A program made the translations under genes and the position numbers. Source: Bacteroidota bacterium (GTDB taxonomy: Bacteria; Bacteroidota; Bacteroidia; Bacteroidales; WCHB1-69). Taken from it: a DNA stretch of 64,000 nt. Shown here in pieces: positions 27,795 through 60,055 of this stretch; the stretch's first letter is position 1; every line of letters begins with the position of its first letter. A model generated the notes under the pieces. The model saw nothing but the letters and a program-made list of their open reading frames with translations. It was not told the DNA's origin and searched no databases. The DNA lies in assembly GCA_029570835.1 (NCBI GenBank), contig JAKPTX010000089.1:34637-98636 (forward strand), given 5' to 3'.

Positions 27795-27815
27795 AATTAC
27801 GAATTACGAATTACG
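27795..27815. repeat. Tandem heptamer array (AATTACG x3)
   Basis: Read directly. The sequence CAATTACGAATTA recurs in reverse orientation at 49988-50003. Confidence 0.8.
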
Positions 27816-27843: not shown

Positions 27844-28815
27844 ATGAAAAGATTTTTATTTATTGCAGCATTGATTTTTTCATCATTGACTTTGTTGAGT
27901 CAAAGTTATGTTTCATTTTTTGCGGATACCAACAAATATAACATTTTGCATCCCATAACTTGGAAAGGAGATTTATCCTCTGATCGTTTTCCGGATTGTG
28001 TTTCCACATTCACGTACTGGGTTATAAAAACGAATCAACACACAATAAATGATAAAACTTATTATGTATCACGACCCGAGTTTGATGAAGATAATCTGAG
28101 GGCTTTTGATGAAGATATATTTATAAGGGAGGATACAACAGGTAAAATTTTTCGTTATTTTCCTTCGATAGAAGATGAAGTATTGATTTGTGATATGTCT
28201 TTAAATCAAGGAGATACATTTCAATTATATACTTTGGATAGTGAGTTTGGTACGGAGTACTACTTTACTGAACAAGGTTATAAACTTGTGGTTGATAGTG
28301 TAACTTATGAAAATGGGAGAAAAATTATTCATTTTCCTAATATTGATGAAAATATTACCTACACTTATTTCTATAATGGGTTGGATTGGGAATATAATGT
28401 CAGATTAAAATTTATTGAAGGTGTGGGTCCAACCTATGGTCCATTCGGCTTTGTAAGTGTGTCTTATGAACCCTTTTTGCCATTACTCCTATGTATTACT
28501 CGGGGTACTCAATTAGAATTTGTACTTCATGATAATCTTGGTTGTCACTATAATTATGTTGGTATAAACGATTATGAGTCTTTAAAAATCAAACTGTATC
28601 CCAACCCTTCCGATGGATTAATACATCTTGATTTGGATGAAAATTGCACAGATTGTTATGTAGAGGTATTTAATCTGTTGGGTGTTTCAGTCTATTCAAC
28701 AACAATTTCCGAAAGCATGACCATTGATTTGTCGAATAATCCGGCAGGAATCTATTTTTTGTCGCTCCGAAACAAAGAATCGGTGTTGGGGGTTAAGAAG
28801 GTGATAATCAAATGA
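27844..28815 (+). CDS. Secreted protein with T9SS type-A C-terminal sorting domain
   Basis: Signal peptide. C-terminal KLYPNPSDGLIHLDL...GIYFLSLRNKESVLGVKKVIIK is the Por/T9SS CTD signature. Confidence 0.7.
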   Translation: MKRFLFIAALIFSSLTLLSQSYVSFFADTNKYNILHPITWKGDLSSDRFPDCVSTFTYWVIKTNQHTINDKTYYVSRPEFDEDNLRAFDEDIFIREDTTGKIFRYFPSIEDEVLICDMSLNQGDTFQLYTLDSEFGTEYYFTEQGYKLVVDSVTYENGRKIIHFPNIDENITYTYFYNGLDWEYNVRLKFIEGVGPTYGPFGFVSVSYEPFLPLLLCITRGTQLEFVLHDNLGCHYNYVGINDYESLKIKLYPNPSDGLIHLDLDENCTDCYVEVFNLLGVSVYSTTISESMTIDLSNNPAGIYFLSLRNKESVLGVKKVIIK

Positions 28816-28845
28816 TTTCGGAGGGCGGATTGCGGATCAAAAAAA

Positions 28846-28894
28846 GTCGAAAGTCGAAAGTCGAAAGTCGAAAGTCGAAAGTCGGAAGGCGAAA
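28846..28894. repeat. Tandem heptamer array (GTCGAAA x5, GTCGGAA, GGCGAAA)
   Basis: Read directly. Seven contiguous 7-nt units. Confidence 0.9.
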
Positions 28895-28904
28895 GTTTTT
28901 TTAT

Positions 28905-28937
28905 AAATTGAAAATTGAAAATTGAAAATTGAAAATG
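28905..28937. repeat. Tandem heptamer array (AAATTGA x about 4.5)
   Basis: Read directly. Confidence 0.9.
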
Positions 28938-28958
28938 GTCAAATATCTAGCGTATCTC

Positions 28959-29120
28959 ATTGATATTCATATCAATAGCCATGTCCTTTAGGGCATGGTT
29001 GGGAATTAACCCCAAGATATCAAGGGCTTTAGCCCAAATTTATTATAATGTCACCCCTTCGGGGTTCTTTGGGCTCTTGGGGTCAATATTTTGCTATAAT
29101 AATGTCACCCCTTTGGGGTT
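28959..29120. other. Cluster of short hairpins with alternative long-range pairings (possible structured RNA or REP/BIME-like element)
   Basis: Hairpins: ATTGATAT/ATATCAAT 28959-28976; CCATGTCC-TTTA-GGGCATGG 28979-28998; TTGGG/CCCAA 28999-29015; GGGC-TTTA-GCCC 29024-29035; ACCCC/GGGGT 29053-29065 and 29107-29119. Long-range pairs: ACCCCAAG 29009-29016 with CTTGGGGT 29076-29083, and AGCCCAAA 29031-29038 with TTTGGGCT 29068-29075. Confidence 0.5.
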
Positions 29121-29125
29121 ATTTT

Positions 29126-29160
29126 GAAGTAAGAAGTGTGAAATTAGAAATATGAAATCT
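29126..29160. repeat. Degenerate heptamer array (GAAGTAA GAAGTGT GAAATTA GAAATAT GAAATCT)
   Basis: Read directly. Five 7-mers each start with GAA. Confidence 0.7.
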
Positions 29161-29193
29161 ATTTTAAAATGTAAATACCTGATATTCAAATAT

Positions 29194-29221
29194 TTCTAAA
29201 TTCTAAACTCTAAATTCTAAA
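29194..29221. repeat. Tandem heptamer array (TTCTAAA x4, one CTCTAAA)
   Basis: Read directly. Confidence 0.9.
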
Positions 29222-29228
29222 TTTATTC

Positions 29229-29290
29229 ATTCCGCCTTCCGCCTTCCGATTTCCGCCTTTAATTCTACCTTCTTCATTCTACCTTCTACC
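29229..29290. repeat. TTCCGCC/TTCTACC heptamer module, copy 1
   Basis: TTCCGCC TTCCGCC TTCCGAT TTCCGCC, then TTCTACC TTCTTCA TTCTACC TTCTACC. The 31-nt core ATTCCGCCTTCCGCCTTCCGATTTCCGCCTT is identical to 50005-50035. Confidence 0.9.
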
Positions 29291-29309
29291 TTGTAGCACC
29301 GAAATCTTT

Positions 29310-30119
29310 TTAGTTTTTCTTTTCTCTTTCGGCGTAAATTTCGTCGGTCATCATTTGTTTGAGGACTGAGGGGGAGATGTTTCTGGTGAGTTTTCCGCCT
29401 TTACACCAGGAGATGTGACCGGTTTGTTCTGAAACAATGACGGAGATGGCATCGGTATGGGTGGTTGCTCCGATGGCGGAACGGTGTCGTAAACCTAAGT
29501 CGGAAGGGATTGATTCATCCTCCGATACCGGCAAAATACATCGTGCAGCGGCGATGCGGTGGTTAGCAATAATAACAGCCCCATCGTGCAACGGTGAGTT
29601 TTTATAGAAGAGATTTTCTAACAATTCCTGGGATACCACAGCGTCAATCTCTTGTCCGGTAGCTAAAAACTCATCCAGTGGATTTTTTCGTGCAAACACC
29701 ATTAAAGCACCGGTTCTGCTTGCCGACATTCTTTCACAAGCACGTGTAATGGCCTCTACGTCTTCTGCATAATCTGCGGGAATGTTTTTCCCTTTGATGT
29801 AGAAACGTGCCCATTTCAAGACTTCAGTATTACCCAGATAGAGTAAAAATTTCCTCAATTCCGGCTGGAACACCACAATCAACAAAATCACCCCGACACT
29901 CAGAAACTGTTCGAGGATCACGTTCAGCATATTCAACTGCAAGAGAGAGACTGCTTTCCAAATCACAAAAAGGATCATCAATCCGATAAAAATTCTCACG
30001 GCAGCGGTTCCTTTCAGCCATTTGTAGAACTGAAAAAGAATAAACGCAACCAGAAGAATATCAATCAGGTCGGTGATTTTGAATTGAATAAAACTTAAAA
30101 CGTTCAAATAGAGAGTCAT
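29310..30119 (-). CDS. cdaA: Diadenylate cyclase CdaA (c-di-AMP synthase)
   Basis: Three N-terminal TM helices, then a DAC domain: TGALMVFARKNPL, SPLHDGAVII, LGLRHRSAIGATTHTDAISVIVSEQTGHIS. Confidence 0.88.
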   Translation of the reverse strand: MTLYLNVLSFIQFKITDLIDILLVAFILFQFYKWLKGTAAVRIFIGLMILFVIWKAVSLLQLNMLNVILEQFLSVGVILLIVVFQPELRKFLLYLGNTEVLKWARFYIKGKNIPADYAEDVEAITRACERMSASRTGALMVFARKNPLDEFLATGQEIDAVVSQELLENLFYKNSPLHDGAVIIANHRIAAARCILPVSEDESIPSDLGLRHRSAIGATTHTDAISVIVSEQTGHISWCKGGKLTRNISPSVLKQMMTDEIYAEREKKN

Positions 30120-49943: not shown

Positions 49944-50004
49944 TCTATTTTTATAGGATGATGAGGTAGGTACCTCTTTACGATCTCATAATTCGTAATT
50001 GATT

Positions 50005-50070
50005 ATTCCGCCTTCCGCCTTCCGATTTCCGCCTTGAATCCCTTCTACCTTCTTCCTTCTTATTTCTGAA
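50005..50070. repeat. TTCCGCC/TTCTACC heptamer module, copy 2
   Basis: 31 nt identical to 29229-29259, then TTCTACC TTCTTCC TTCTTAT TTCTGAA. Preceded by the rc of the AATTACG motif (49988-50003). Confidence 0.9.
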
Positions 50071-50072
50071 TT

Positions 50073-50128
50073 AAAAAAATCAGGGGGCAGGATGTGTCTT
50101 CCTTTTTAGTTATCCCATTTCCCCACTC
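50073..50128. repeat. Dispersed intergenic element, copy 2 (A-run / AGGGGGCAG / CTTTTTAGTT / CCCCACTC blocks)
   Basis: Same ordered blocks as 27705-27762. Followed by the hairpin CTCTC-CAATGT-GAGAG (50126-50141) and a T-rich tail. Confidence 0.6.
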
Positions 50129-50194
50129 TCCAATGTGAGAGCTTATTATTTATTTCGTGAACCAGGTAATACAATCTATCCCAAAAATCGTTTA

Positions 50195-51040
50195 TTATTC
50201 CACTACAAAACTCCTCAAAAGCGCAATCTCTTCTGCCCAAAGTGTAGGATCAGGAGTTTCTAAAATGATAGGAATATGGTTAAAACGAGGATCATTCATA
50301 AAGCGTTTAAAGAAATCGATCCCTAAGAAACCTTTGCCAATACTGTCATGTCTGTCCACTCTGCTGCCAAACTCTTTTTTAGTGTCATTTAAGTGGATCG
50401 CTTTCAGATAGTTAGCTCCAATGATTTCATCAAACTGACGGAAAGTTTCCGCATAGCCTGCTTCCGTTTTTAAGTCATAGCCGGCAGAGTAGGAGTGACA
50501 AGAGTCTATGCAAACTCCAACTCGCGATTTATCTTCCACCTGATCAATAATTTGGGCAATCTGTTCAAAAGTGTGTCCGAGATTGGTTCCTTGTCCTGCT
50601 GTATTTTCAATAATGGCAGAAACCCCTTTGGTCCTATCCAAAGCGATGTTGATTGACTCGGCAATGGTTGCCAGACAGTCTTCAATAGAGTGTTGATTCA
50701 GGTGACTCCCGGGGTGGAAATTGAGCAACTGTAATCCCAATTGCTCACAGCGTTGCATCTCATCTAAAAAAGCGTTGCGTGACTTCTCCAATCCTTCCTT
50801 TTCAGGATGTCCCAAATTGATTAAATAACTATCATGGGGGAGAATATGTTCCGCTTTGATTCCATATTTTTCACAATTTTGCTTGAAAAGTTCTATACTT
50901 TTTTTAGTCAAAGGAGGTGATACCCATCTTCTTTGATTTTTGGTAAATAAAGCAAAGGCATTGGCTCCAATCTCATGGGCTCTGATGGGTGCATTTTCAA
51001 CGCCTCCTTCAGCGCTGACATGGGCTCCGATATATTTCAT
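50195..51040 (-). CDS. nfo: Endonuclease IV (deoxyribonuclease IV)
   Basis: [13 protein letters not shown]...[41 protein letters not shown]. Confidence 0.92.
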
Positions 51041-51050
51041 ATTTCAATAC

Positions 51051-52811
51051 TTATTTTTTAATTATTCTTCCGTATCTTCTTCTTCGGATCAATATGAGTA
51101 CTACTCCCATTACCAAAATCATAACGAGAGGAATAACGATATTGATTACCGCATAAAAGGTACCGTTTTCTCTTATTTTTTGTGGATCCAATGTTCCAAT
51201 TTTAAAACTTTTTGAACGCACCTGAAGGAGATCATCATCAGCACAGAGATAGTTGACACAGTTTAAAATAAAGTCAGTATTGTCGTATAGGGTTCGCGTA
51301 TAAATATCATATCCGGCAGGGTAAGGTTGGTTGGACTTGGAGTCGAAATAGTTACGAATAACATCTCCATCCGCAACGAAGATTTGTCTGGTATTGGGAC
51401 TTTTATCTTTGAATCCCAGTTCTTTAATGGTATCAAATTCAACAGGAAGAATACCACTGTAAGCAGAGGTAAACTCTCCTTCAACCAATACCGCTAACGG
51501 AAGATATTTAAAGGCATACTCTTCCATAATCGGTTTGGATTTGACTACTCCCAATGAAACGATAGCCGGTGTGGGCACCATTTTTGTGCGTTCGGATGTA
51601 GTTACTAAAACAGTCTTTCTGAGATCTCCCGAAGAACCGATAAAATCAACAGTACCGGTGAAATCCATCTTTAGATTCTTGAGTTTTCTGGTAATCGGAT
51701 GCGAGGAGAAGTTTACAGCATTCACAAGATAGGGGAAAGCCCAAAATTTGAATTGGGGTTGATCTCCGATATATCCTGAGGGGATGGGTACGGAGAGACA
51801 GGTTAAATCTTGTATCAGATTGGGATTGATACGGACTCCATATTTAAAAAAGAGCGTATTCAGTCCCAAAGGGCGTTCAACCGCGAAGAACTCGGGAGCA
51901 GTCTGTAAGCTGTCTATGGAAGCGTTGGAAGCATCGATGAGCCACAAAACTTTCCCCCCCCTCATGATATGTTGGTCAATCAAATACTTATTGATATCAT
52001 CAAAGGGTTCGGTAGGTTGTGCCACGATCAACACATCATATTTATTCCCCAAATCTTTAATGGTTTGTTTTACAGAATCTTCAATCGCAATACTTCTCAA
52101 AGTGTTGATTCTGCCATCTAAGGTAACCCGCTCTACACTATAAAAGCGCTTTAGCTGGTACATCATCCAGGAGGTACTCATAAAGTCCAGCTCACCATGC
52201 CCGTCAGTAAAGGCGATTTTGGCAGTTCTGGGTGCAACCAATTGACGGATTGTAGCGACTAAGTTATACTCCAGCTCTTGAATGGAATAGTCGAGCCAGC
52301 TACTGCTATTGTTGGGATCGGAAACCACTAGAGTAGCGGGTGCTTCCTTAACTTTGTACGAAATCATGGCTCCCGGTACTACGTAGTGCGTAGAGAAACC
52401 TGTAGCATCCTGTTTACTGATGGGAATCGGGTGCAATCCTTTTTTATAAAATTCACCGAAGATAGCTTTACTTTCATCAGCAGATTTACCGGCAATAGGA
52501 TCTACAAATTCAAAATAGATATTTCTTGAATAGCGACGAAACTCTTGCAGAATATCCTCTGTTTTTCTGGCAAATAGCTCATAATCAGCAGGTTGATTCT
52601 TTCCTTTCAGATACACCTTGATATATACCTTCTCATCTAGTGATTTGAGTAGTTCAATCGTGGTTTTGGAAAGTGAATTACGCTTGTCTTGAGTAAGGTC
52701 AATTCTAAAAAACAGGTACGAGAAAACGATATTCAAGGTAACCAATATGATTATCGCTACGAGCAAACTCGTTAAGGCCGTTTTTTTATATTTTTTGCTA
52801 TTATTCATCAT
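51051..52811 (-). CDS. gldG: Gliding-motility-associated ABC transporter substrate-binding/auxiliary protein GldG
   Basis: 586 aa with N- and C-terminal TM anchors and a large periplasmic domain. Lies directly downstream of gldF, as in other Bacteroidota. Confidence 0.72.
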   Translation of the reverse strand: MMNNSKKYKKTALTSLLVAIIILVTLNIVFSYLFFRIDLTQDKRNSLSKTTIELLKSLDEKVYIKVYLKGKNQPADYELFARKTEDILQEFRRYSRNIYFEFVDPIAGKSADESKAIFGEFYKKGLHPIPISKQDATGFSTHYVVPGAMISYKVKEAPATLVVSDPNNSSSWLDYSIQELEYNLVATIRQLVAPRTAKIAFTDGHGELDFMSTSWMMYQLKRFYSVERVTLDGRINTLRSIAIEDSVKQTIKDLGNKYDVLIVAQPTEPFDDINKYLIDQHIMRGGKVLWLIDASNASIDSLQTAPEFFAVERPLGLNTLFFKYGVRINPNLIQDLTCLSVPIPSGYIGDQPQFKFWAFPYLVNAVNFSSHPITRKLKNLKMDFTGTVDFIGSSGDLRKTVLVTTSERTKMVPTPAIVSLGVVKSKPIMEEYAFKYLPLAVLVEGEFTSAYSGILPVEFDTIKELGFKDKSPNTRQIFVADGDVIRNYFDSKSNQPYPAGYDIYTRTLYDNTDFILNCVNYLCADDDLLQVRSKSFKIGTLDPQKIRENGTFYAVINIVIPLVMILVMGVVLILIRRRRYGRIIKK

Positions 52812-53586: not shown

Positions 53587-53602
53587 TGAAAAATCTTTTG
53601 AA

Positions 53603-53637
53603 GGCGGAAGGCGGAATTCGGAAGGCGGAAAGAAGGA
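53603..53637. repeat. Tandem heptamer array (GGCGGAA GGCGGAA TTCGGAA GGCGGAA AGAAGGA)
   Basis: Read directly. Reverse complement of the TTCCGCC units at 29230-29257 and 50006-50033. Confidence 0.9.
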
Positions 53638-53703: not shown

Positions 53704-56127
53704 ATGATGAGACGTTTATTGTTGATATTTTGTATTCCTCTATTTCTTTTTTCCTGCAGTACGGTGAAAAGAGAATCGCAACAGGTTTTGCAGTTGTACT
53801 ACGACAATCCGGCAACCCGCTGGGAGGAGACGCTTCCCTTGGGAAATGGGAGAATAGGAATGATGATAGATGGAGGTGTTGAGCAGGAGGAGATCGTTTT
53901 AAACGATATCACAATGTGGTCGGGGAGTGTTGATCCGGAAACGATCAATCCCGATGCCCAGGAGCAGCTTCCTGTGATTCGTCAGCTTTTGCTTGAAGGG
54001 AAGAATGAGCAGGCGCAGGAGTTGGTGTATCGCTATTTCAAATGTGGCGGCAAAGGTTCCCATTTTGGAAATGGTAAAGATGCTCCTTACGGATCTTTTC
54101 AACTGCTTGGAAATCTGAAAGTTAAACATCTTTATCCCGATCAGTCCGAAGTGACGGAGTATCGCAGGACGCTCTCTTTGAACGACGCTGTCGCCACTAC
54201 GCAGTTTCAGAAAGGAAAGGTGACTTACCAACGACACTATTTTGCGTCCCATACGGATGATCTGCTGGTGGCTCACTACACTGCGGATCAGCGGGGTGCG
54301 TTGTCGATGGAGATTGCGTTGGATCGTCCCGAAAGAGTGCAAATCAGTGTTCATTCGGATGAAATAGTGATGCAGGGGCAACTGAATGACGGTTATGATA
54401 GTGATCAGGGAGTTCGTTATTTTTTTACTTTAAAAATTAAAAAAAAGGGGGGGACGCATACCTCTACAGATAGTTCTTTGATTATTAGCCAAGCCTCTGA
54501 GGTTACGATACTGATGTGTACCTCTACGAACATGTTGGAGAAGAACCACATTCAAACCGTTCAAGACAACTTAAGTCATGCAGAAAAGTACAGTTTCCGG
54601 CAGCTGAAAAAGCGTCATATTGAAGCTTATCGCGAAAAGTTTGATCGGGTGGAACTGGATTTAGGTCCGCAAAATTTGGATATTCCCACAGATCAACGGC
54701 TACTCCAATTTCAGTCGGATGAAGATCCTGCTTTGGTGGCGCTCTATTTTCAGTATGGTCGCTACTTGATGATCAGCGGGACGCGAGAAAACAGCTTACC
54801 GTTAAATCTGCAAGGACTTTGGACCAATCAGGTGCAGACACCCTGGAATGGAGATTATCATTTGAATATCAACGTTCAGATGAACTATTGGCTGGCTGAA
54901 GTGGGGAATCTGGCGGAACTTCACCTTCCTCTGATCAGACTGACTGAGTCGTTGCAATCGTCAGGGGAAAGGACGGCAAAAGGGTTTTATCAGGCAGAGG
55001 GTTGGGTGGCTCACATGATGACCAATCCGTGGCATTTTACCGCTCCGGGAGAGCATGCTTCCTGGGGAGCAACCAATACCGGTGGAGCCTGGCTCTGTGC
55101 ACACCTTTGGGAGCATTATCAGTACGGATTGGATACGGCTTATTTACGATCTGTTTATCCGATTATTCGGGGTGCAGCTCAATTTTTCCTATCCGCTATG
55201 ATTGAGGAACCCCGCCACAATTATTGGGTTACAGCGCCCTCCTCTTCTCCGGAGAACGGCTTTAAAATACCCGGTTCGGATCAGACAATTTACGTCTGTC
55301 TTGGTCCTACTATGGATGCACAGATTATCCGCGAGCTCTTCACTAATCTCCTTTCGGCGGCGCAGATATTGGGTAGCAGCGATGAGGTGACGGAAGCGGT
55401 TGAACAGGCGCTATTCCGCCTCCCCCCAAATAATATTAGTCCAAAAGGATATTTAATGGAATGGCTGGAAGATTATGAGGAAGTAGATACCCAACACCGG
55501 CATGTGTCTCATTTGTATGGATTGTACCCATCCAATCAGATTTCTCCGGACTTTACGCCGGAATGGGCTCAGGCGGCGAAAGTAACGCTCAATCGGCGAG
55601 GTGACGGGGGTACCGGATGGTCAAGAGCGTGGAAAATCAATTTTTGGGCAAGATTGAAGGATGGAAACCGGGCGTACAGCTTGTTGAAAAAACTGCTGGA
55701 ACCTGCCTGGAATCCGGAAAATAAAGAGGAACAGCGAGCAGGAACTTATCCGAACCTCTTTTGTGCGCATCCTCCTTTCCAGATTGATGGCAATTTTGGA
55801 GGGAGTGCAGGAATTGCCGAAATGCTGATCCAGAGTCAGCACGGGTTTATTGAGTTGCTTCCCGCACTGCCCGATCGATGGGAGAAGGGTAGTCTCAAAG
55901 GAGTTTGCGTTCGGGGAGCCGGAGAGGTGGATCTCGTTTGGGAAAATCATCAGGTTCAGGAGGTTACGCTCAGAGCCAAAGCAGATCATCAATATCGGAT
56001 CAAAATACCCGACTATGTTAAAACCGTGAAATGGGATCGCAATAAAGTGGATAGAGCAGATACTCCTTTTGTGGAAATTAACTTGAAGAAGGGGGAAGAA
56101 GTTACATTGCAATTGATTCCTTTCTAA
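53704..56127 (+). CDS. Glycoside hydrolase family 95 protein (alpha-L-fucosidase-like)
   Basis: Lipoprotein-type signal peptide (MMRRLLLIFCIPLFLFSCS). N-terminal YDNPATRWEETLPLGNGRIGMM...NDITMWSG is typical of GH95. About 800 aa. Confidence 0.85.
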   Translation: MMRRLLLIFCIPLFLFSCSTVKRESQQVLQLYYDNPATRWEETLPLGNGRIGMMIDGGVEQEEIVLNDITMWSGSVDPETINPDAQEQLPVIRQLLLEGKNEQAQELVYRYFKCGGKGSHFGNGKDAPYGSFQLLGNLKVKHLYPDQSEVTEYRRTLSLNDAVATTQFQKGKVTYQRHYFASHTDDLLVAHYTADQRGALSMEIALDRPERVQISVHSDEIVMQGQLNDGYDSDQGVRYFFTLKIKKKGGTHTSTDSSLIISQASEVTILMCTSTNMLEKNHIQTVQDNLSHAEKYSFRQLKKRHIEAYREKFDRVELDLGPQNLDIPTDQRLLQFQSDEDPALVALYFQYGRYLMISGTRENSLPLNLQGLWTNQVQTPWNGDYHLNINVQMNYWLAEVGNLAELHLPLIRLTESLQSSGERTAKGFYQAEGWVAHMMTNPWHFTAPGEHASWGATNTGGAWLCAHLWEHYQYGLDTAYLRSVYPIIRGAAQFFLSAMIEEPRHNYWVTAPSSSPENGFKIPGSDQTIYVCLGPTMDAQIIRELFTNLLSAAQILGSSDEVTEAVEQALFRLPPNNISPKGYLMEWLEDYEEVDTQHRHVSHLYGLYPSNQISPDFTPEWAQAAKVTLNRRGDGGTGWSRAWKINFWARLKDGNRAYSLLKKLLEPAWNPENKEEQRAGTYPNLFCAHPPFQIDGNFGGSAGIAEMLIQSQHGFIELLPALPDRWEKGSLKGVCVRGAGEVDLVWENHQVQEVTLRAKADHQYRIKIPDYVKTVKWDRNKVDRADTPFVEINLKKGEEVTLQLIPF

Positions 56128-56143
56128 ATCATTTATTTTATCG

Positions 56144-56151
56144 TATCTTTG
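56144..56151 (+). promoter_or_regulatory. Bacteroidota -7 promoter box (TAtcTTTG)
   Basis: Ends 2 nt before the first ATG (56154). This favours the second Met (56172) as the start. Confidence 0.5.
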
Positions 56152-56171
56152 CCATGAAAAATAGTTTAAGC

Positions 56172-56657
56172 ATGAAAAAATGGATCATTATCCCTTTGCT
56201 TTTTATAGTTTTCTGCTCATTTGATATACAGCACGGTATGGTTAAAGTGTATCATAAAGATTCCCGCTACTCTTCCGATCAGATTTGCAACCTTCGGGAC
56301 GGAAAAGTGTACAAAAAAAACTCCTCATACTCTTCCGATATTGTCTGTCGGATCGAGGGGAATAAGATTTATAAAAACAACTCGACTTACAGCACCGATA
56401 TCATCTATACCATTAAGGAGAACAAGATCTATAGAGGCAATTCCACTTATTCCAGCGACCAGGTTTATACAATTAAGGATGGCAAGGTGTACAAGGGAAA
56501 TTCCACTTACAGCAGCGATCTCCTCTACACCATCAAGGACAATAAAGTGTACAAAGGCAACTCAACCTACAGCAGTGATTTGTATTTCAGCTACGATAAC
56601 TACGTCACCATTGAAGAGTTTGTTGCTATTTTACACGTGGTGAGATATACTTTTTGA
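56172..56657 (+). CDS. Small exported protein made of six tandem 20-aa repeats (KVYKGNSTYSSDxxYTIKDx)
   Basis: MKKWIIIPLLFIVFCSF hydrophobic N-terminus, then six consecutive 20-residue units, then a unique about 25-aa tail. No family recognised. Confidence 0.5.
   Translation: MKKWIIIPLLFIVFCSFDIQHGMVKVYHKDSRYSSDQICNLRDGKVYKKNSSYSSDIVCRIEGNKIYKNNSTYSTDIIYTIKENKIYRGNSTYSSDQVYTIKDGKVYKGNSTYSSDLLYTIKDNKVYKGNSTYSSDLYFSYDNYVTIEEFVAILHVVRYTF
56244..56603 (+). repeat. Coding 60-nt tandem repeat (6 units)
   Basis: The DNA periodicity underlies the 20-aa repeats. It also keeps a second frame open (track ORF 56221-56643). Confidence 0.8.
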
Positions 56658-56741
56658 AGACGAATTTCGGAAGGGGAGTTTTGTATCTTTTTTGCCTATA
56701 GTTTTTTATTTACATAATTTAGTGGACATTGTCATTTAAAG

Positions 56742-58766
56742 TTACCACACTTTTTCATACCACCGTCCATGAATATTCCTTTCGAGAAATTCAGTAATGC
56801 GTTTCATATGATAAAAATTATTATTTTCAATCCTACATTTTTTTATACAAATTTTTCTTATTTTTTCATCTAAAGTTTTCGAACAGTTTGAGTCAAATGG
56901 TCCAAAAATTGATTCAAGAAATCCATTATCATATTCACAGTAATTATTATTTTTGTTTCTAATTCCAACTTTAAATGAGCCCGATCCAGCTACATCCCAT
57001 ACCTTTATTTCGTAGTAAATAATTTTTCCATCATCACTTACTTCAGTGTATATTATCTCATAAGAGGGTGTTTTGCCATTTTTTACAATTTGATTAAAAG
57101 CTTTATGATATCTTCTTGATAATTGATTATAATAGTTTACAGCTTGATTGTGGGTTCTTGATAAAATAATGTGATTATCTGAACATTGTTGTAATTTATT
57201 ATTCGCAATAGCTATATACTCAGGATTATTAAAAGTTTCTATAAAAGTTGAGCAATTTGATATTACAGTAGCCACCTTTCTTTTCTCAGCTAATATTAAA
57301 TCAGAATCGTCATCTGTTTTATATCCTATATATCCAGTATTTGCATCCTTAATAAATTTATCAAATGCAATTTTTTCAATATCTGAAGATTTGCTGGGAA
57401 AATTTAAAAATAATGAAGCAAGTTCATCAATAGAGTTAGTTTCTATTGTTTTTTCATAATATGTTTTTGTAGTATTTTCAACCTCCGAAATCAAATTTTT
57501 TTTCAAGTTCTGAGGGATAGTATTTATTTCGGAGATTTCGTTTATTAAATCAGTTGAAATTTTTTCGCTTTTATAAAATGTTTCTGAATAATTTTTTAAA
57601 ACATAAAGTGGAAAAACAGTATTTCTGGAAACAAATTCTTTTATATTTTTTGAGCTTAAAATATATTCTTCTTTAAGACTATATAAATTTTTATAAGCAG
57701 TTGAATTATTATCTATTGAAAGGTTTGAAAATAAAGAAATAAAGTCAGGGATTTGTTCAGTTGTTATATTAAAATTCGTTCTTTTATATTGTTCTGAAAT
57801 AAAATAAAGCCTTTTATCTGGATATAGTCTTGTTATAATTTTCATTTTTTCCAGATTTTTAACACCAGTTTTTAGTTTGTCAAATATTATATTTTTAATT
57901 TCGCTACTAGCATAGGGTATACAAGTGTATGCATTAATTAATGCTAATCTATCTTCAGATAGAGGATACTTTGAGTTAAGTAATGTTGAAACATGTTGAG
58001 AGTTATTCTTTGATACAGCAAAATACAGAGCATCACGGTTATCTTTATTAGTGATACTAACATCTGCACCTTTGGAAATACAGTACGAAAACAAATCTGG
58101 TCTTTCTGTTATAACAGAATAGGTCAAGATACTATTTGAATTATCGTCTCTTGTATTGACAGAAGCTCCTTTTTCAATAAGTGTTTTAATAATATCTGAC
58201 GAGATATATTCTTTACTATATGATTTTCTATTGAAATAATAGTTTCTAGATATTAAAAACGATAAGGGTAGAGGAGAACCTTTACATAATTGATTTACGT
58301 CAAAATTAGGTTTATTACAAAATAAGTAAAAAAGATTTTCAGCGTTTTGACATTCTTCAATTTTATGTGTAGCAATAAACTCTAATACTAAATAGAATGG
58401 TGTAAGGTCATCAAATACACAATACATAAATGGATCGTATTTCAGTATTAATTTTACCATCTCTACAGAGTGTTTTTCGTACAAACATCTATCAACCGCA
58501 TCATATAACAAAGGTATTTTACCGGCAGCCAATACCGAATGTTTTGAAGGAGCTGTCATTTTTGAAGATGAGTTAACTAATGAGGGGTCTTTATCAAGAA
58601 TTTTTTTCATAAGTTTAACGTCATCCCCATCGAGTGCTTCAGCAATCTTTTTATTAAATTCTGTTTTTAGTTTCTTGTCAGATTCAAAGTTAAATTTCTG
58701 GGCATACATATGCCCAGAAATTAGAATTAATAAAATAACTAGAATACTATATTTTGTCTTTTCCAT
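56742..58766 (-). CDS. Secreted protein with degenerate ankyrin repeats and a long uncharacterised C-terminal region
   Basis: Signal peptide MEKTKYSILVILLILISGHMYAQ. ANK-like units are present, e.g. IIKTLIEKGASVNTRDDNSNSILTYSVITERPDLFSYCISKGADVSITNKDNRDALYFAV. About 380 C-terminal residues have no recognised motif. Confidence 0.5.
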   Translation of the reverse strand: MEKTKYSILVILLILISGHMYAQKFNFESDKKLKTEFNKKIAEALDGDDVKLMKKILDKDPSLVNSSSKMTAPSKHSVLAAGKIPLLYDAVDRCLYEKHSVEMVKLILKYDPFMYCVFDDLTPFYLVLEFIATHKIEECQNAENLFYLFCNKPNFDVNQLCKGSPLPLSFLISRNYYFNRKSYSKEYISSDIIKTLIEKGASVNTRDDNSNSILTYSVITERPDLFSYCISKGADVSITNKDNRDALYFAVSKNNSQHVSTLLNSKYPLSEDRLALINAYTCIPYASSEIKNIIFDKLKTGVKNLEKMKIITRLYPDKRLYFISEQYKRTNFNITTEQIPDFISLFSNLSIDNNSTAYKNLYSLKEEYILSSKNIKEFVSRNTVFPLYVLKNYSETFYKSEKISTDLINEISEINTIPQNLKKNLISEVENTTKTYYEKTIETNSIDELASLFLNFPSKSSDIEKIAFDKFIKDANTGYIGYKTDDDSDLILAEKRKVATVISNCSTFIETFNNPEYIAIANNKLQQCSDNHIILSRTHNQAVNYYNQLSRRYHKAFNQIVKNGKTPSYEIIYTEVSDDGKIIYYEIKVWDVAGSGSFKVGIRNKNNNYCEYDNGFLESIFGPFDSNCSKTLDEKIRKICIKKCRIENNNFYHMKRITEFLERNIHGRWYEKVW

Positions 58767-59713
58767 TTTTTTCTTAATTTAGGGTCTGTAGGAAGTATTT
58801 TGCCGTCAACATTTTCATATTTTACTTTTCCGTCTAAAGCAATTTGATCTATTTGTCCGGAAATGTTGTCACTAATTTCTTTAAAAAAATAGTCAAAAAC
58901 TGGTTCAAAAAAATGTTCCCATCTATGTTGATTAACACCAATTACTAGTTTATCACCTATGATCTTGTCAACTTGATCAGGCCAATATTTAGCTATACCA
59001 CCTATCACTTTGAGCGAGGGTAACCTATCCCTCGTAATGACTTCGCTTGAACCATTTTTAATAGCATTTTCATATATTTCGAATTGTTCTTTTGTTTTTT
59101 TTCTAAATTCACCCCGGACAGTTTTATTATATAACTCTAAACCACCTGCAAAAAGTATAAGGGCTTTTCCTACACCAGTTTCAGTACTTAAGATTAAACC
59201 ATATTCATCTGATACTGCTTTGTCCGCTGGGTAAATTATATTTGCATCTCCCCATTCTTTTCCATTACCTTTGCCACCTTTGAGGCAATTTAAATAACCA
59301 TCTTCATCAACAAAAGCAATTACCTTAGAATAAAAATTTGTAATCGTGATTTTCATTTGCCCAAGATTATTAAGTAAGATAAATACATCAAAGTATAATG
59401 TAACTGGAGGTGCAACTTGAGGAGCACCCCACAATCCTTTTGTTAAATACTGACCATGCTTAAACCCAAATCCCACTTTATATTCAAAGATATTTTCATC
59501 GTAAATAGTTATTTCTTCGGTAGAATCAATTAATTTCTCTGAAACTAAATAATCTTTTACCCTTAAGATTAATTCTTCTTGTTTTAAAGCTGTATTAATT
59601 ATTGCTGAATACGCTCTATCTTCACTAATTTCGCTATTCATATAAAAAAGTTGTTGAGAAAATCCTTGATAGCAAATTATTGTAATAAGTGAAATTAAAA
59701 TTACTTTTTTCAT
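58739..59713 (-). CDS. Hypothetical secreted protein
   Basis: Signal peptide MKKVILISLITIICYQGFSQ. Its 3' end overlaps the downstream ANK gene by 28 nt, consistent with translational coupling. No motif recognised. Confidence 0.45.
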   Translation of the reverse strand: MKKVILISLITIICYQGFSQQLFYMNSEISEDRAYSAIINTALKQEELILRVKDYLVSEKLIDSTEEITIYDENIFEYKVGFGFKHGQYLTKGLWGAPQVAPPVTLYFDVFILLNNLGQMKITITNFYSKVIAFVDEDGYLNCLKGGKGNGKEWGDANIIYPADKAVSDEYGLILSTETGVGKALILFAGGLELYNKTVRGEFRKKTKEQFEIYENAIKNGSSEVITRDRLPSLKVIGGIAKYWPDQVDKIIGDKLVIGVNQHRWEHFFEPVFDYFFKEISDNISGQIDQIALDGKVKYENVDGKILPTDPKLRKKWKRQNIVF

Positions 59714-60055
59714 TTTTTTATATTTAGTTTATTATTCATGAGGCTTTTAAGAATAAGCCCTATTTTTTCGAGTAGTTTCCAAGTACCACTTTTTATAGTT
59801 TCTGTTTATCATAAATAATAATTAAGAGCTATCAAAGTAGTTCCTAAACGAGTTTAGTGTTTGTTTACTAAATGTTTTTTTTAATTTTTTCATAATATTA
59901 ATTATTTTGGAACAAACACATAATACTTATTATGAAACTTAATGAAATGAATTTCAAATTACTAGGAGATTTTCATACGTTTTAAGTGTCCCCTTTATTA
60001 GGACAGTTTTTTTTAAAATTTGTTAATATTTTATTTTTTAAAGAACTTAAATCTT

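Follow-up and report, generated by a model that had tools for sequence, protein, structure and literature searches.

The 494-nt spacer at 28816-29309 of the window, as we call the whole 64,000-nt stretch of DNA that was analyzed, holds a nest of hairpins (28959-29120) with competing local and long-range helices. The question raised by this locus is whether the nest is a regulatory RNA switch or a group of repeats that fold like one. The first-pass annotation had favored an attenuator, riboswitch or RNA thermometer, and had kept as a fallback a nest of REP-like palindromes sharing the words CCCAA/TTGGG and GCCC/GGGC. The fallback was supported and could be given a specific form: two of the nest hairpins are members of a repeat family that is linked to a Y1 gene. 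The stop codons of two convergent genes lie on either side of the spacer, and the host genome (36% GC, Bacteroidales-type) is known from anaerobic-digester metagenomes. The features of the locus are as follows.

27844-28815, plus strand: gene of a T9SS-sorted protein (Por_Secre_tail).
28843-28936, plus strand: left heptamer tandem arrays, with six copies of AAAGTCG, GAAGGCG, and four copies of AAATTGA, in GAA-N4 phase (TRF period 7).
28959-28998, plus strand: two further local palindromes, ATTGATAT/ATATCAAT and CCATGTCC-TTTA-GGGCATGG.
28999-29017, plus strand: hairpin hp2, TTGGG-N7-CCCAA, with the 3' arm region ATTAACCCCAAGA.
29024-29038, plus strand: hairpin hp3, GGGC-TTTA-GCCC with AAA after it and an ATATCA tail before it, the partner in the inner long-range helix.
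29038-29070, plus strand: REP_a, a canonical family copy with the 5' tail ATTTATTATAATGTCA and the hairpin ACCCC-TTC-GGGGT.
29071-29091, plus strand: G/T-rich spacer of the REP doublet.
29092-29124, plus strand: REP_b, a canonical copy with the tail TGCTATAATAATGTCA and the hairpin ACCCC-TTT-GGGGT, then TTATTTTG.
29125-29159, plus strand: degenerate GAA-N4 heptamers (GAAGTAA, GAAGTGT, GAAATTA, GAAATAT and GAAATCT), which travel with REP_b.
29194-29292, plus strand: right heptamer tandem arrays (TTCTAAA, TTCCGCC and TTCTACC) in TTC-N4 phase, detected by TRF.
29310-30119, minus strand: cdaA, encoding the diadenylate cyclase CdaA.

The local hairpins described in the first-pass annotation were all recovered. 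The palindrome ATTGATAT/ATATCAAT occupies 28959-28976, and the hairpin CCATGTCC-TTTA-GGGCATGG, which contains one T.G pair, occupies 28979-28998. These are followed by TTGGG-N7-CCCAA at 28999-29015 and GGGC-TTTA-GCCC at 29024-29035, while the hairpins ACCCC-TTC-GGGGT and ACCCC-TTT-GGGGT are located at 29053-29065 and 29107-29119, respectively. The direct repeat of 22 nt (29045-29066 and 29099-29120) occurred exactly twice in the window, compared with 0 copies expected in shuffled sequences, and can be extended to about 30 nt.

The proposed long-range pairing was present as well. The 16-mer TTTGGGCTCTTGGGGT (29068-29083), which consists of the final bases of REP_a and part of the doublet spacer, is perfectly complementary, in nested order, to AGCCCAAA (29031-29038) and ACCCCAAG (29009-29016). 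A split 8 + 8 helix of this kind was obtained in 4 of 2000 dinucleotide shuffles, and the outer long-range helix extends to 13 nt at 92%. The region 28940-29130 was folded with RNAfold, which gave -58.2 kcal/mol for the plus strand (z -3.4) and -56.8 kcal/mol for the minus strand (z -4.25); no shuffled sequence out of 200 reached such an energy for either strand. The long-range helix was used in the MFE structure of both strands. It was also borne out that the local and the long-range helices are mutually exclusive, and they were nearly isoenergetic on the plus strand, where the energies were -52.5 kcal/mol with local hp2 and hp3, -53.7 kcal/mol with strict long-range pairing and -56.0 kcal/mol without constraint. 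On the minus strand, the long-range state was favored by about 10 kcal/mol. As ssDNA, the single hairpins were modestly stable (-3 to -5.7 kcal/mol). These results confirmed that the hairpin nest and its complementarity are real and not due to chance.

Then, the members of the repeat family in the window were located with the covariance model R1, which was built from the repeat. With the filters off, exactly two members were found in the 64 kb, both inside the hairpin nest, namely REP_a at 29038-29070 (44.7 bits, E 2.4e-9) and REP_b at 29092-29124 (46.1 bits, E 1.1e-9). The upstream hairpins (hp2, hp3 and the others) gave E > 10 with the same model and the filters off, and were rejected as family members; the ATATCA tails at 28969 and 29018, which the upstream hairpins have in common, are only suggestive. 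None of the sub-hairpins was found elsewhere in the window, where each is unique even with mismatches allowed. A BLAST search with the left part of the nest (28937-29040) against all fetched loci returned chance-level words only and no homolog. Judging from these comparisons, the upstream hairpins are lineage-specific palindromes.

One of these palindromes may also account for the long-range pairing. The 3' arm region of hp2, ATTAACCCCAAGA, repeats the spacer word TCTTGGGGTCAAT (29075-29087) in inverted form, with 12 of 13 positions complementary. In the outer helix, this spacer word pairs with the inverted copy of the same word, the reverse complement of 29005-29017 being TCTTGGGGTTAAT, and the complementarity therefore amounts to an inverted duplication of a spacer word of the family. 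In the locus L038, TTGGGGTTAATTT comes after a REP. REP_b, too, can serve as a partner for the C-rich arm at 29004-29015, so the pairing among the shared words is promiscuous.

The family unit consists of the tail CTATAATAATGTCA and a 5-bp GC hairpin with a TTC loop. The full conserved unit is longer than the 21-mer used for searching and reads CTATAATAAT(G/A/T)TCA, then ACCCC-TTC-GGGGT, then T. When one genome per GTDB species was scanned with the core 21-mer TAATGTCACCCCTTYGGGGTT, exact matches were obtained in at least 120 genome stretches from several phyla, with at least 163 exact copies. Among the matches listed, the hosts within Bacteroidota were Chitinophagales, Bacteroidales, Saprospiraceae, Flavobacteriales and Cytophagales, and the further hosts were Ignavibacteria, Nitrospira, Brocadiaceae/Loosdrechtia (anammox Planctomycetes), Elusimicrobiota, Calditrichaceae and one Limnohabitans bin. 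The matches listed were all from MAGs, multi-megabase long-read contigs included; given these contigs and the consistent positions of the repeats relative to genes, an assembly artefact is unlikely. The copies are often repeated in tandem and in direct orientation about every 50 nt, with G/T-rich spacers between them (L037, L039 with at least 11 units, L041, L043, L060 and L011).

The pairing of the stem was evaluated in unique instances that were anchored on the tail, so that the hairpin was not preselected. All five pairs were formed in 23 of 43 instances, compared with 5.7 when the 3' arms were swapped. Stem pair 2 was C:G in 14 instances, G:C in 11 and T:A in 8, and compensatory double changes were present at pairs 3-5. 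This covariation shows that the hairpin stem has evidently been kept in the family. As a separate observation, a conserved flank of about 40 nt, AACAGCTAACCCGGAA..GGTG..CAAAACACAGCTTCA, precedes the repeat in the Brocadiaceae/Loosdrechtia loci L045, L048, L078, L093, L109 and L120, which suggests a larger repeated element in the anammox bacteria.

In the loci L019, L050 and L085, the repeat array abuts a gene that starts with MAGTFSQIYIQ and contains an HIH motif. The array-adjacent gene matched the Pfam family Y1_Tnp (PF01797; 1.2e-23) and also exceeded the cutoff of the NCBIfam IS200 model. A homologous Y1 gene was present in 26 of 120 stretches of 8 kb among the matches listed. The repeats upstream of the Y1 gene had the opposite orientation, and those downstream had the same orientation as the gene. 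In L113, L021, L044, L066 and L018, the stop codon of the Y1 gene is the TAA of TAATGTCA in the repeat, so that the end of the CDS and the start of the first downstream repeat coincide exactly.

The association was also tested in reverse with 80 metagenome loci that were picked by the Y1 protein alone. In these loci, R1 gave 351 matches in 200 kb. With a stricter nhmmer cutoff, the nearest upstream match was on the opposite strand by 21:6, and the nearest downstream match was on the same strand by 20:3. Only 4 repeat matches were located more than 600 nt from the Y1 gene, in 82.7 kb of these protein-picked loci. By this comparison of sequences, the arrangement of repeats and Y1 gene in other genomes, with its orientation rule, is shown to be of the REP/RAYT type and not an IS200 element.

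The Y1 proteins next to the repeats were about 150 aa long and shared a C-terminal tail, and the motifs DH[IV]H, WQ and Y---Q--HH were present in 22 of 22 aligned proteins; the invariant residues in A4 were D54, H55, H57, W95, Q96, Y115, Q119, H122 and H123. Subclass 1.2 is defined by DH[IV]H, WQ and Y---Q--HH, together with a typical length of about 148 aa and a C-terminal tail of its own (Quentin et al., 2018, PMC6006769). In its sequence, the repeat-adjacent protein matches an IS200-like Y1 (HuH) protein of TnpA_Y1 subclass 1.2. Genes of this type with repeats were also found in loci assigned to Ignavibacteria, Calditrichaceae and others. Subclass 1.2 was reported to be low-copy and to occur mostly in Cyanobacteria and Bacteroidetes, with no typical IS200 end structures and 'no' REP (PMC6006769), whereas the genes found here are flanked by a clear repeat family. 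In our literature search, we found no description of the repeat sequence or of a REP for subclass 1.2. We tentatively propose that the repeat family is the DNA partner of this orphan Y1 HuH subclass, with the odds slightly below even. In the 64-kb window, no Y1 ORF was found. The locus L169 was considered as the Y1 locus of the window organism and rejected; it was obtained from a JGI sample whose accession number is close, and it has no special similarity.

The best explanation of the nest, to which we give a probability of roughly 0.78, is that repeats of the REP type are clustered here in a junk spacer that is specific to the lineage and separates convergent genes, and that the cluster acts as DNA and not as an RNA switch. 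According to this explanation, the 16-mer would be the G/T-rich spacer within the usual tandem unit of about 50 nt of the family, and the upstream hairpin that holds an inverted spacer word would create the long-range complementarity. The family would act at the DNA level, with the tail and hairpin extruded as single-stranded DNA. By analogy with REP/RAYT and IS200/IS605, the extruded tail and hairpin would be recognized by the subclass 1.2 Y1 HuH protein, which may cleave, copy or move them; we infer from the same analogy both the binding and cleavage of the repeat by Y1 and its mode of spread. The clusters would grow through tandem duplication and promote rearrangement, and RNA effects, such as termination or 3'-end protection for the T9SS gene or cdaA, would be a by-product.

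The family resembles the REP/BIME sequences and RAYTs (TnpA_REP, 'REPtron') of Proteobacteria in having short extragenic GC-rich hairpins with a conserved single-stranded 5' tail. It also shares with them the many clustered copies, the single Y1 HuH gene bracketed by inverted copies and the covarying stem, as well as the presence of clusters at gene 3' ends and rearrangement points. However, there are several differences. REPs carry the tag GTAG or CGTC at one end of the palindrome (PMC3733652), whereas the tail of this family is CTATAATAATGTCA, without a GTAG or CGTC tag, and its stem is of 5 bp only. Most clusters hold copies in direct tandem order, repeating about every 50 nt, unlike alternating BIMEs, and the same 21-27-mer is found across phyla, unlike the classical lineage-specific REPs. 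Moreover, the associated protein is of class 1, IS200-like with Y---Q--HH, and not a class 2 TnpA_REP (Y---NP).

With IS200/IS605, the family shares the protein family (PF01797, with the NCBIfam IS200 model above its cutoff), and a small hairpin with an adjacent single-stranded guide or tail would be the expected recognition mode by analogy. IS200/IS605 elements have hairpins on the same strand at both ends and form a discrete unit of about 0.7-2 kb with tnpA. In contrast, the copies that flank the Y1 gene here are inverted, solo copies and arrays are scattered at a great distance from Y1 genes, and tnpB was not observed. In the window itself, the repeats are present and a transposase gene is not.

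The spacer was then compared with related loci. It is 100% identical in three independent contigs of the same species, which therefore give no covariation signal. Relatives with 84 and 78% identical CdaA have spacers of 11 and 130 nt, respectively, after cdaA, with no repeats and different neighbors. No tRNA or tmRNA genes were found. Only two homologous copies of the doublet were found besides the window. In L105 (Bacteroidales UBA5429), the REP-spacer-REP doublet, with a spacer identical over 41 nt, is located at an unrelated locus and lacks the upstream partners AGCCCAAA and ACCCCAAG. The L124 contig shares 93.4% identity with the window along 5.1 kb, and the synteny extends as far as the T9SS gene. 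There, the doublet and its right flank are inverted and directly follow the T9SS gene; the spacer has diverged and hp3 is absent, as it is from L105. The doublet spacer of L124 differs from that of the window by an indel and many substitutions, and a hairpin weakly homologous to hp2 is present. The GAA heptamers (29125-29159) adjoin REP_b in L124 too, with 41 nt identical. The gene downstream in L124 has no counterpart in the window. On these sequence comparisons, the spacer is lineage-specific and located at a synteny breakpoint, and the difference between L124 and the window points to a recent local inversion and array expansion.

The cluster may in addition have been co-opted as a bidirectional terminator or 3'-end stabilizer for the T9SS gene and cdaA. 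This role is compatible with the best explanation, and we regard it as rather unlikely. E. coli REPs stabilize upstream mRNA and provide a precedent. The position between convergent 3' ends would fit such a role, as would the GC hairpins followed by T-rich tracts. Among the matches listed, 181 of 188 clusters were intergenic, lying outside long ORFs, and clusters were rarest between divergent genes (16 of 140). However, there was no bias toward the sense orientation relative to the upstream gene (75 clusters co-directional and 65 opposed among the matches listed), and the close relatives manage with the 11-nt or 130-nt spacers. A sense-oriented terminator as the main role of the family was rejected for lack of this orientation bias.

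Another possibility is that the nest is a composite mobile unit like a REPIN or BIME, in which the inverted spacer copies around REP_a form a long hairpin that is mobilized. The inverted 13-nt spacer word is indeed found on both sides of REP_a. Moreover, the doublet and its spacer have been transferred together between unrelated loci (L105), and in L124 they are inverted. Nevertheless, the left arm is missing in both other copies of the doublet, the two REPs of the window are direct and not inverted, and a second copy of the whole composite was not found in the window or the fetched loci. A composite unit of this kind is improbable.

Still less credible is the cis-acting RNA switch, in which termination or read-through would be controlled by competition of the 16-bp long-range helix with the hairpins at 28999-29015 and 29024-29035. 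The mutually exclusive helices, nearly isoenergetic on the plus strand, the complementarity beyond chance and the low fold z-scores on both strands are what such a switch would predict. In addition, REP_b was scored as terminator-like in a simple scan and resembles an intrinsic terminator, and the T.G pair in the first hairpin (CCATGTCC-TTTA-GGGCATGG) fits an RNA of the plus strand. The nest is thus like riboswitches, attenuators and thermometers in its mutually exclusive helices of similar stability and in one hairpin that is followed by a T-run. It differs from them in that it has no 5' leader position, no conserved helices, no Rfam model and no regulated gene. The element follows two convergent stop codons and therefore has no downstream gene to control; in the window, no gene start was found downstream of the nest on either strand, and both neighbors end at the spacer. 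There were no Rfam matches at gathering scores in the 64 kb, and permissive thresholds gave nothing usable. The best sub-threshold match was Acido-Lenti-1, with 14 bits compared with a gathering score of 37. This match spans hp3 and REP_a (29024-29066) and was taken as chance.

The two halves of the proposed switch also do not travel together. The first-pass annotation had looked to covariation among homologs for support of the long-range helices, and this failed to appear: in L105 and L124, the partners are either absent or disrupted, and no compensatory change is seen. In the three-way alignment of the window, L105 and L124, a test with three sequences only, the long-range helices were 62.5 and 72.7% paired with the window itself counted, and 335 of 500 shuffles did as well, while the REP hairpin was 100% paired. 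The spacer is absent in the relatives with 78-84% identical CdaA, and the ability of the C-rich arm (29004-29015) to pair with REP_b too also speaks against a dedicated switch. Since the spacer is lineage-specific and no gene start lies downstream, an ordinary leader-type switch is ruled out. The attenuator, riboswitch or thermometer of the first-pass annotation is not supported. The structure could conceivably be under recent selection in this lineage.

A small RNA or small protein gene (a 55-aa ORF with a TTG start at 28960-29127, or an ORF of 35 codons from an ATG at 29048, MSPLRG...MSPLWG) is the least plausible of all, for although the region is structured, the ORFs exist and the 54-nt spacing of the repeats is divisible by three, Rfam gave no match, the sole Bacteroidetes-type -7 motif in the spacer is on the minus strand (29035-29042) and at chance frequency (this motif had no genome-wide enrichment, and a sigma-70 scan was at chance), the indel and substitutions in the L124 spacer break the frame, and the family has unrelated spacers in hundreds of loci.

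If the REP-type explanation and its Y1 partner are correct, the family would be a second, independently arisen 'REPtron' that is built on a class 1 enzyme. That REPtron would be distinguished by a conserved tail of unusual length, by direct arrays in tandem and by repeats that are nearly identical across phyla. The tail-plus-hairpin repeat, which is easy to recognize and brackets the subclass 1.2 genes in many phyla, is a candidate substrate for HuH proteins without a known target. Furthermore, the family would account for some of the so far unexplained hairpins between genes in Bacteroidota, Ignavibacteria, Nitrospira and anammox bacteria from wastewater and sediments. The repeats may also mark sites of local rearrangement: a relative of 93% nucleotide identity has the module inverted, and the spacer coincides with a synteny breakpoint. 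The switch-like fold at this locus would be a by-product of repeat words that pair with each other, which calls for caution in structure-based scans of intergenic regions.

The hairpin core is surrounded by heptamer arrays, which are a separate feature. The left and right arrays are inverted relative to each other, with a complementarity of 81 and 73%. The array with the units TTCCGCC, TTCCGCC, TTCCGAT and TTCCGCC is found again at 50006-50035 and, inverted, at 53600-53630. Heptamer arrays are also present at 27795-27815, 49987-50061 and 53600-53630 of the window. AATTACG is a further unit, and all heptamer units in the window are in GAA-N4 or TTC-N4 phase. Among the matches listed (L004-L123), 7 was the commonest short tandem period, with 39 arrays compared with 0-9 for the periods 5, 6 and 8-11. 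The period-7 units of these loci were unrelated in sequence, and some formed inverted pairs around REPs (L090 and L010). A mechanistic link between heptamers and REPs was considered and rejected, as 6 of 39 arrays were within 120 nt of a repeat, where 6% of the bases lie, which is a weak enrichment. Heptanucleotide repeats of TAACTGA were reported in Beggiatoaceae, Cyanobacteria and Bacteroidetes (MacGregor, 2015, PMC4679880). The heptamers of the window resemble these and the cyanobacterial STRR as varied period-7 direct repeats in this and other spacers, and differ from them in the GAA-N4/TTC-N4 phase and in the inverted arrays around the core.

Some minor observations were made on the arrangement of the window. 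The segment 5144-5377 of L124 corresponds to 29045-29295 of the window, with the REP doublet, the GAA heptamers and the TTCTACC array inverted as one block, and the window has an extra heptamer insert of about 100 nt. In L133-L136 (78% identical CdaA), a C69 peptidase gene and a gene of a pterin-binding (FolP-like) protein directly follow cdaA. In the window, the C69 peptidase and FolP-like genes (50195-52811) are 21 kb from cdaA and end at the spacer 49944-50194. That spacer carries a second TTCCGCC/TTCTACC array, so that the two synteny breakpoints fall at one and the same heptamer array. In addition, the GC content changes sharply within 54001-60000 of the window, from 0.478 at 54-56 kb to 0.29 at 56-60 kb, and a 60-nt tandem repeat with 3.4 copies and 69% matches is located at 56378-56579. 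The GC shift and the 60-nt repeat may represent an island boundary or a repeat-containing gene.
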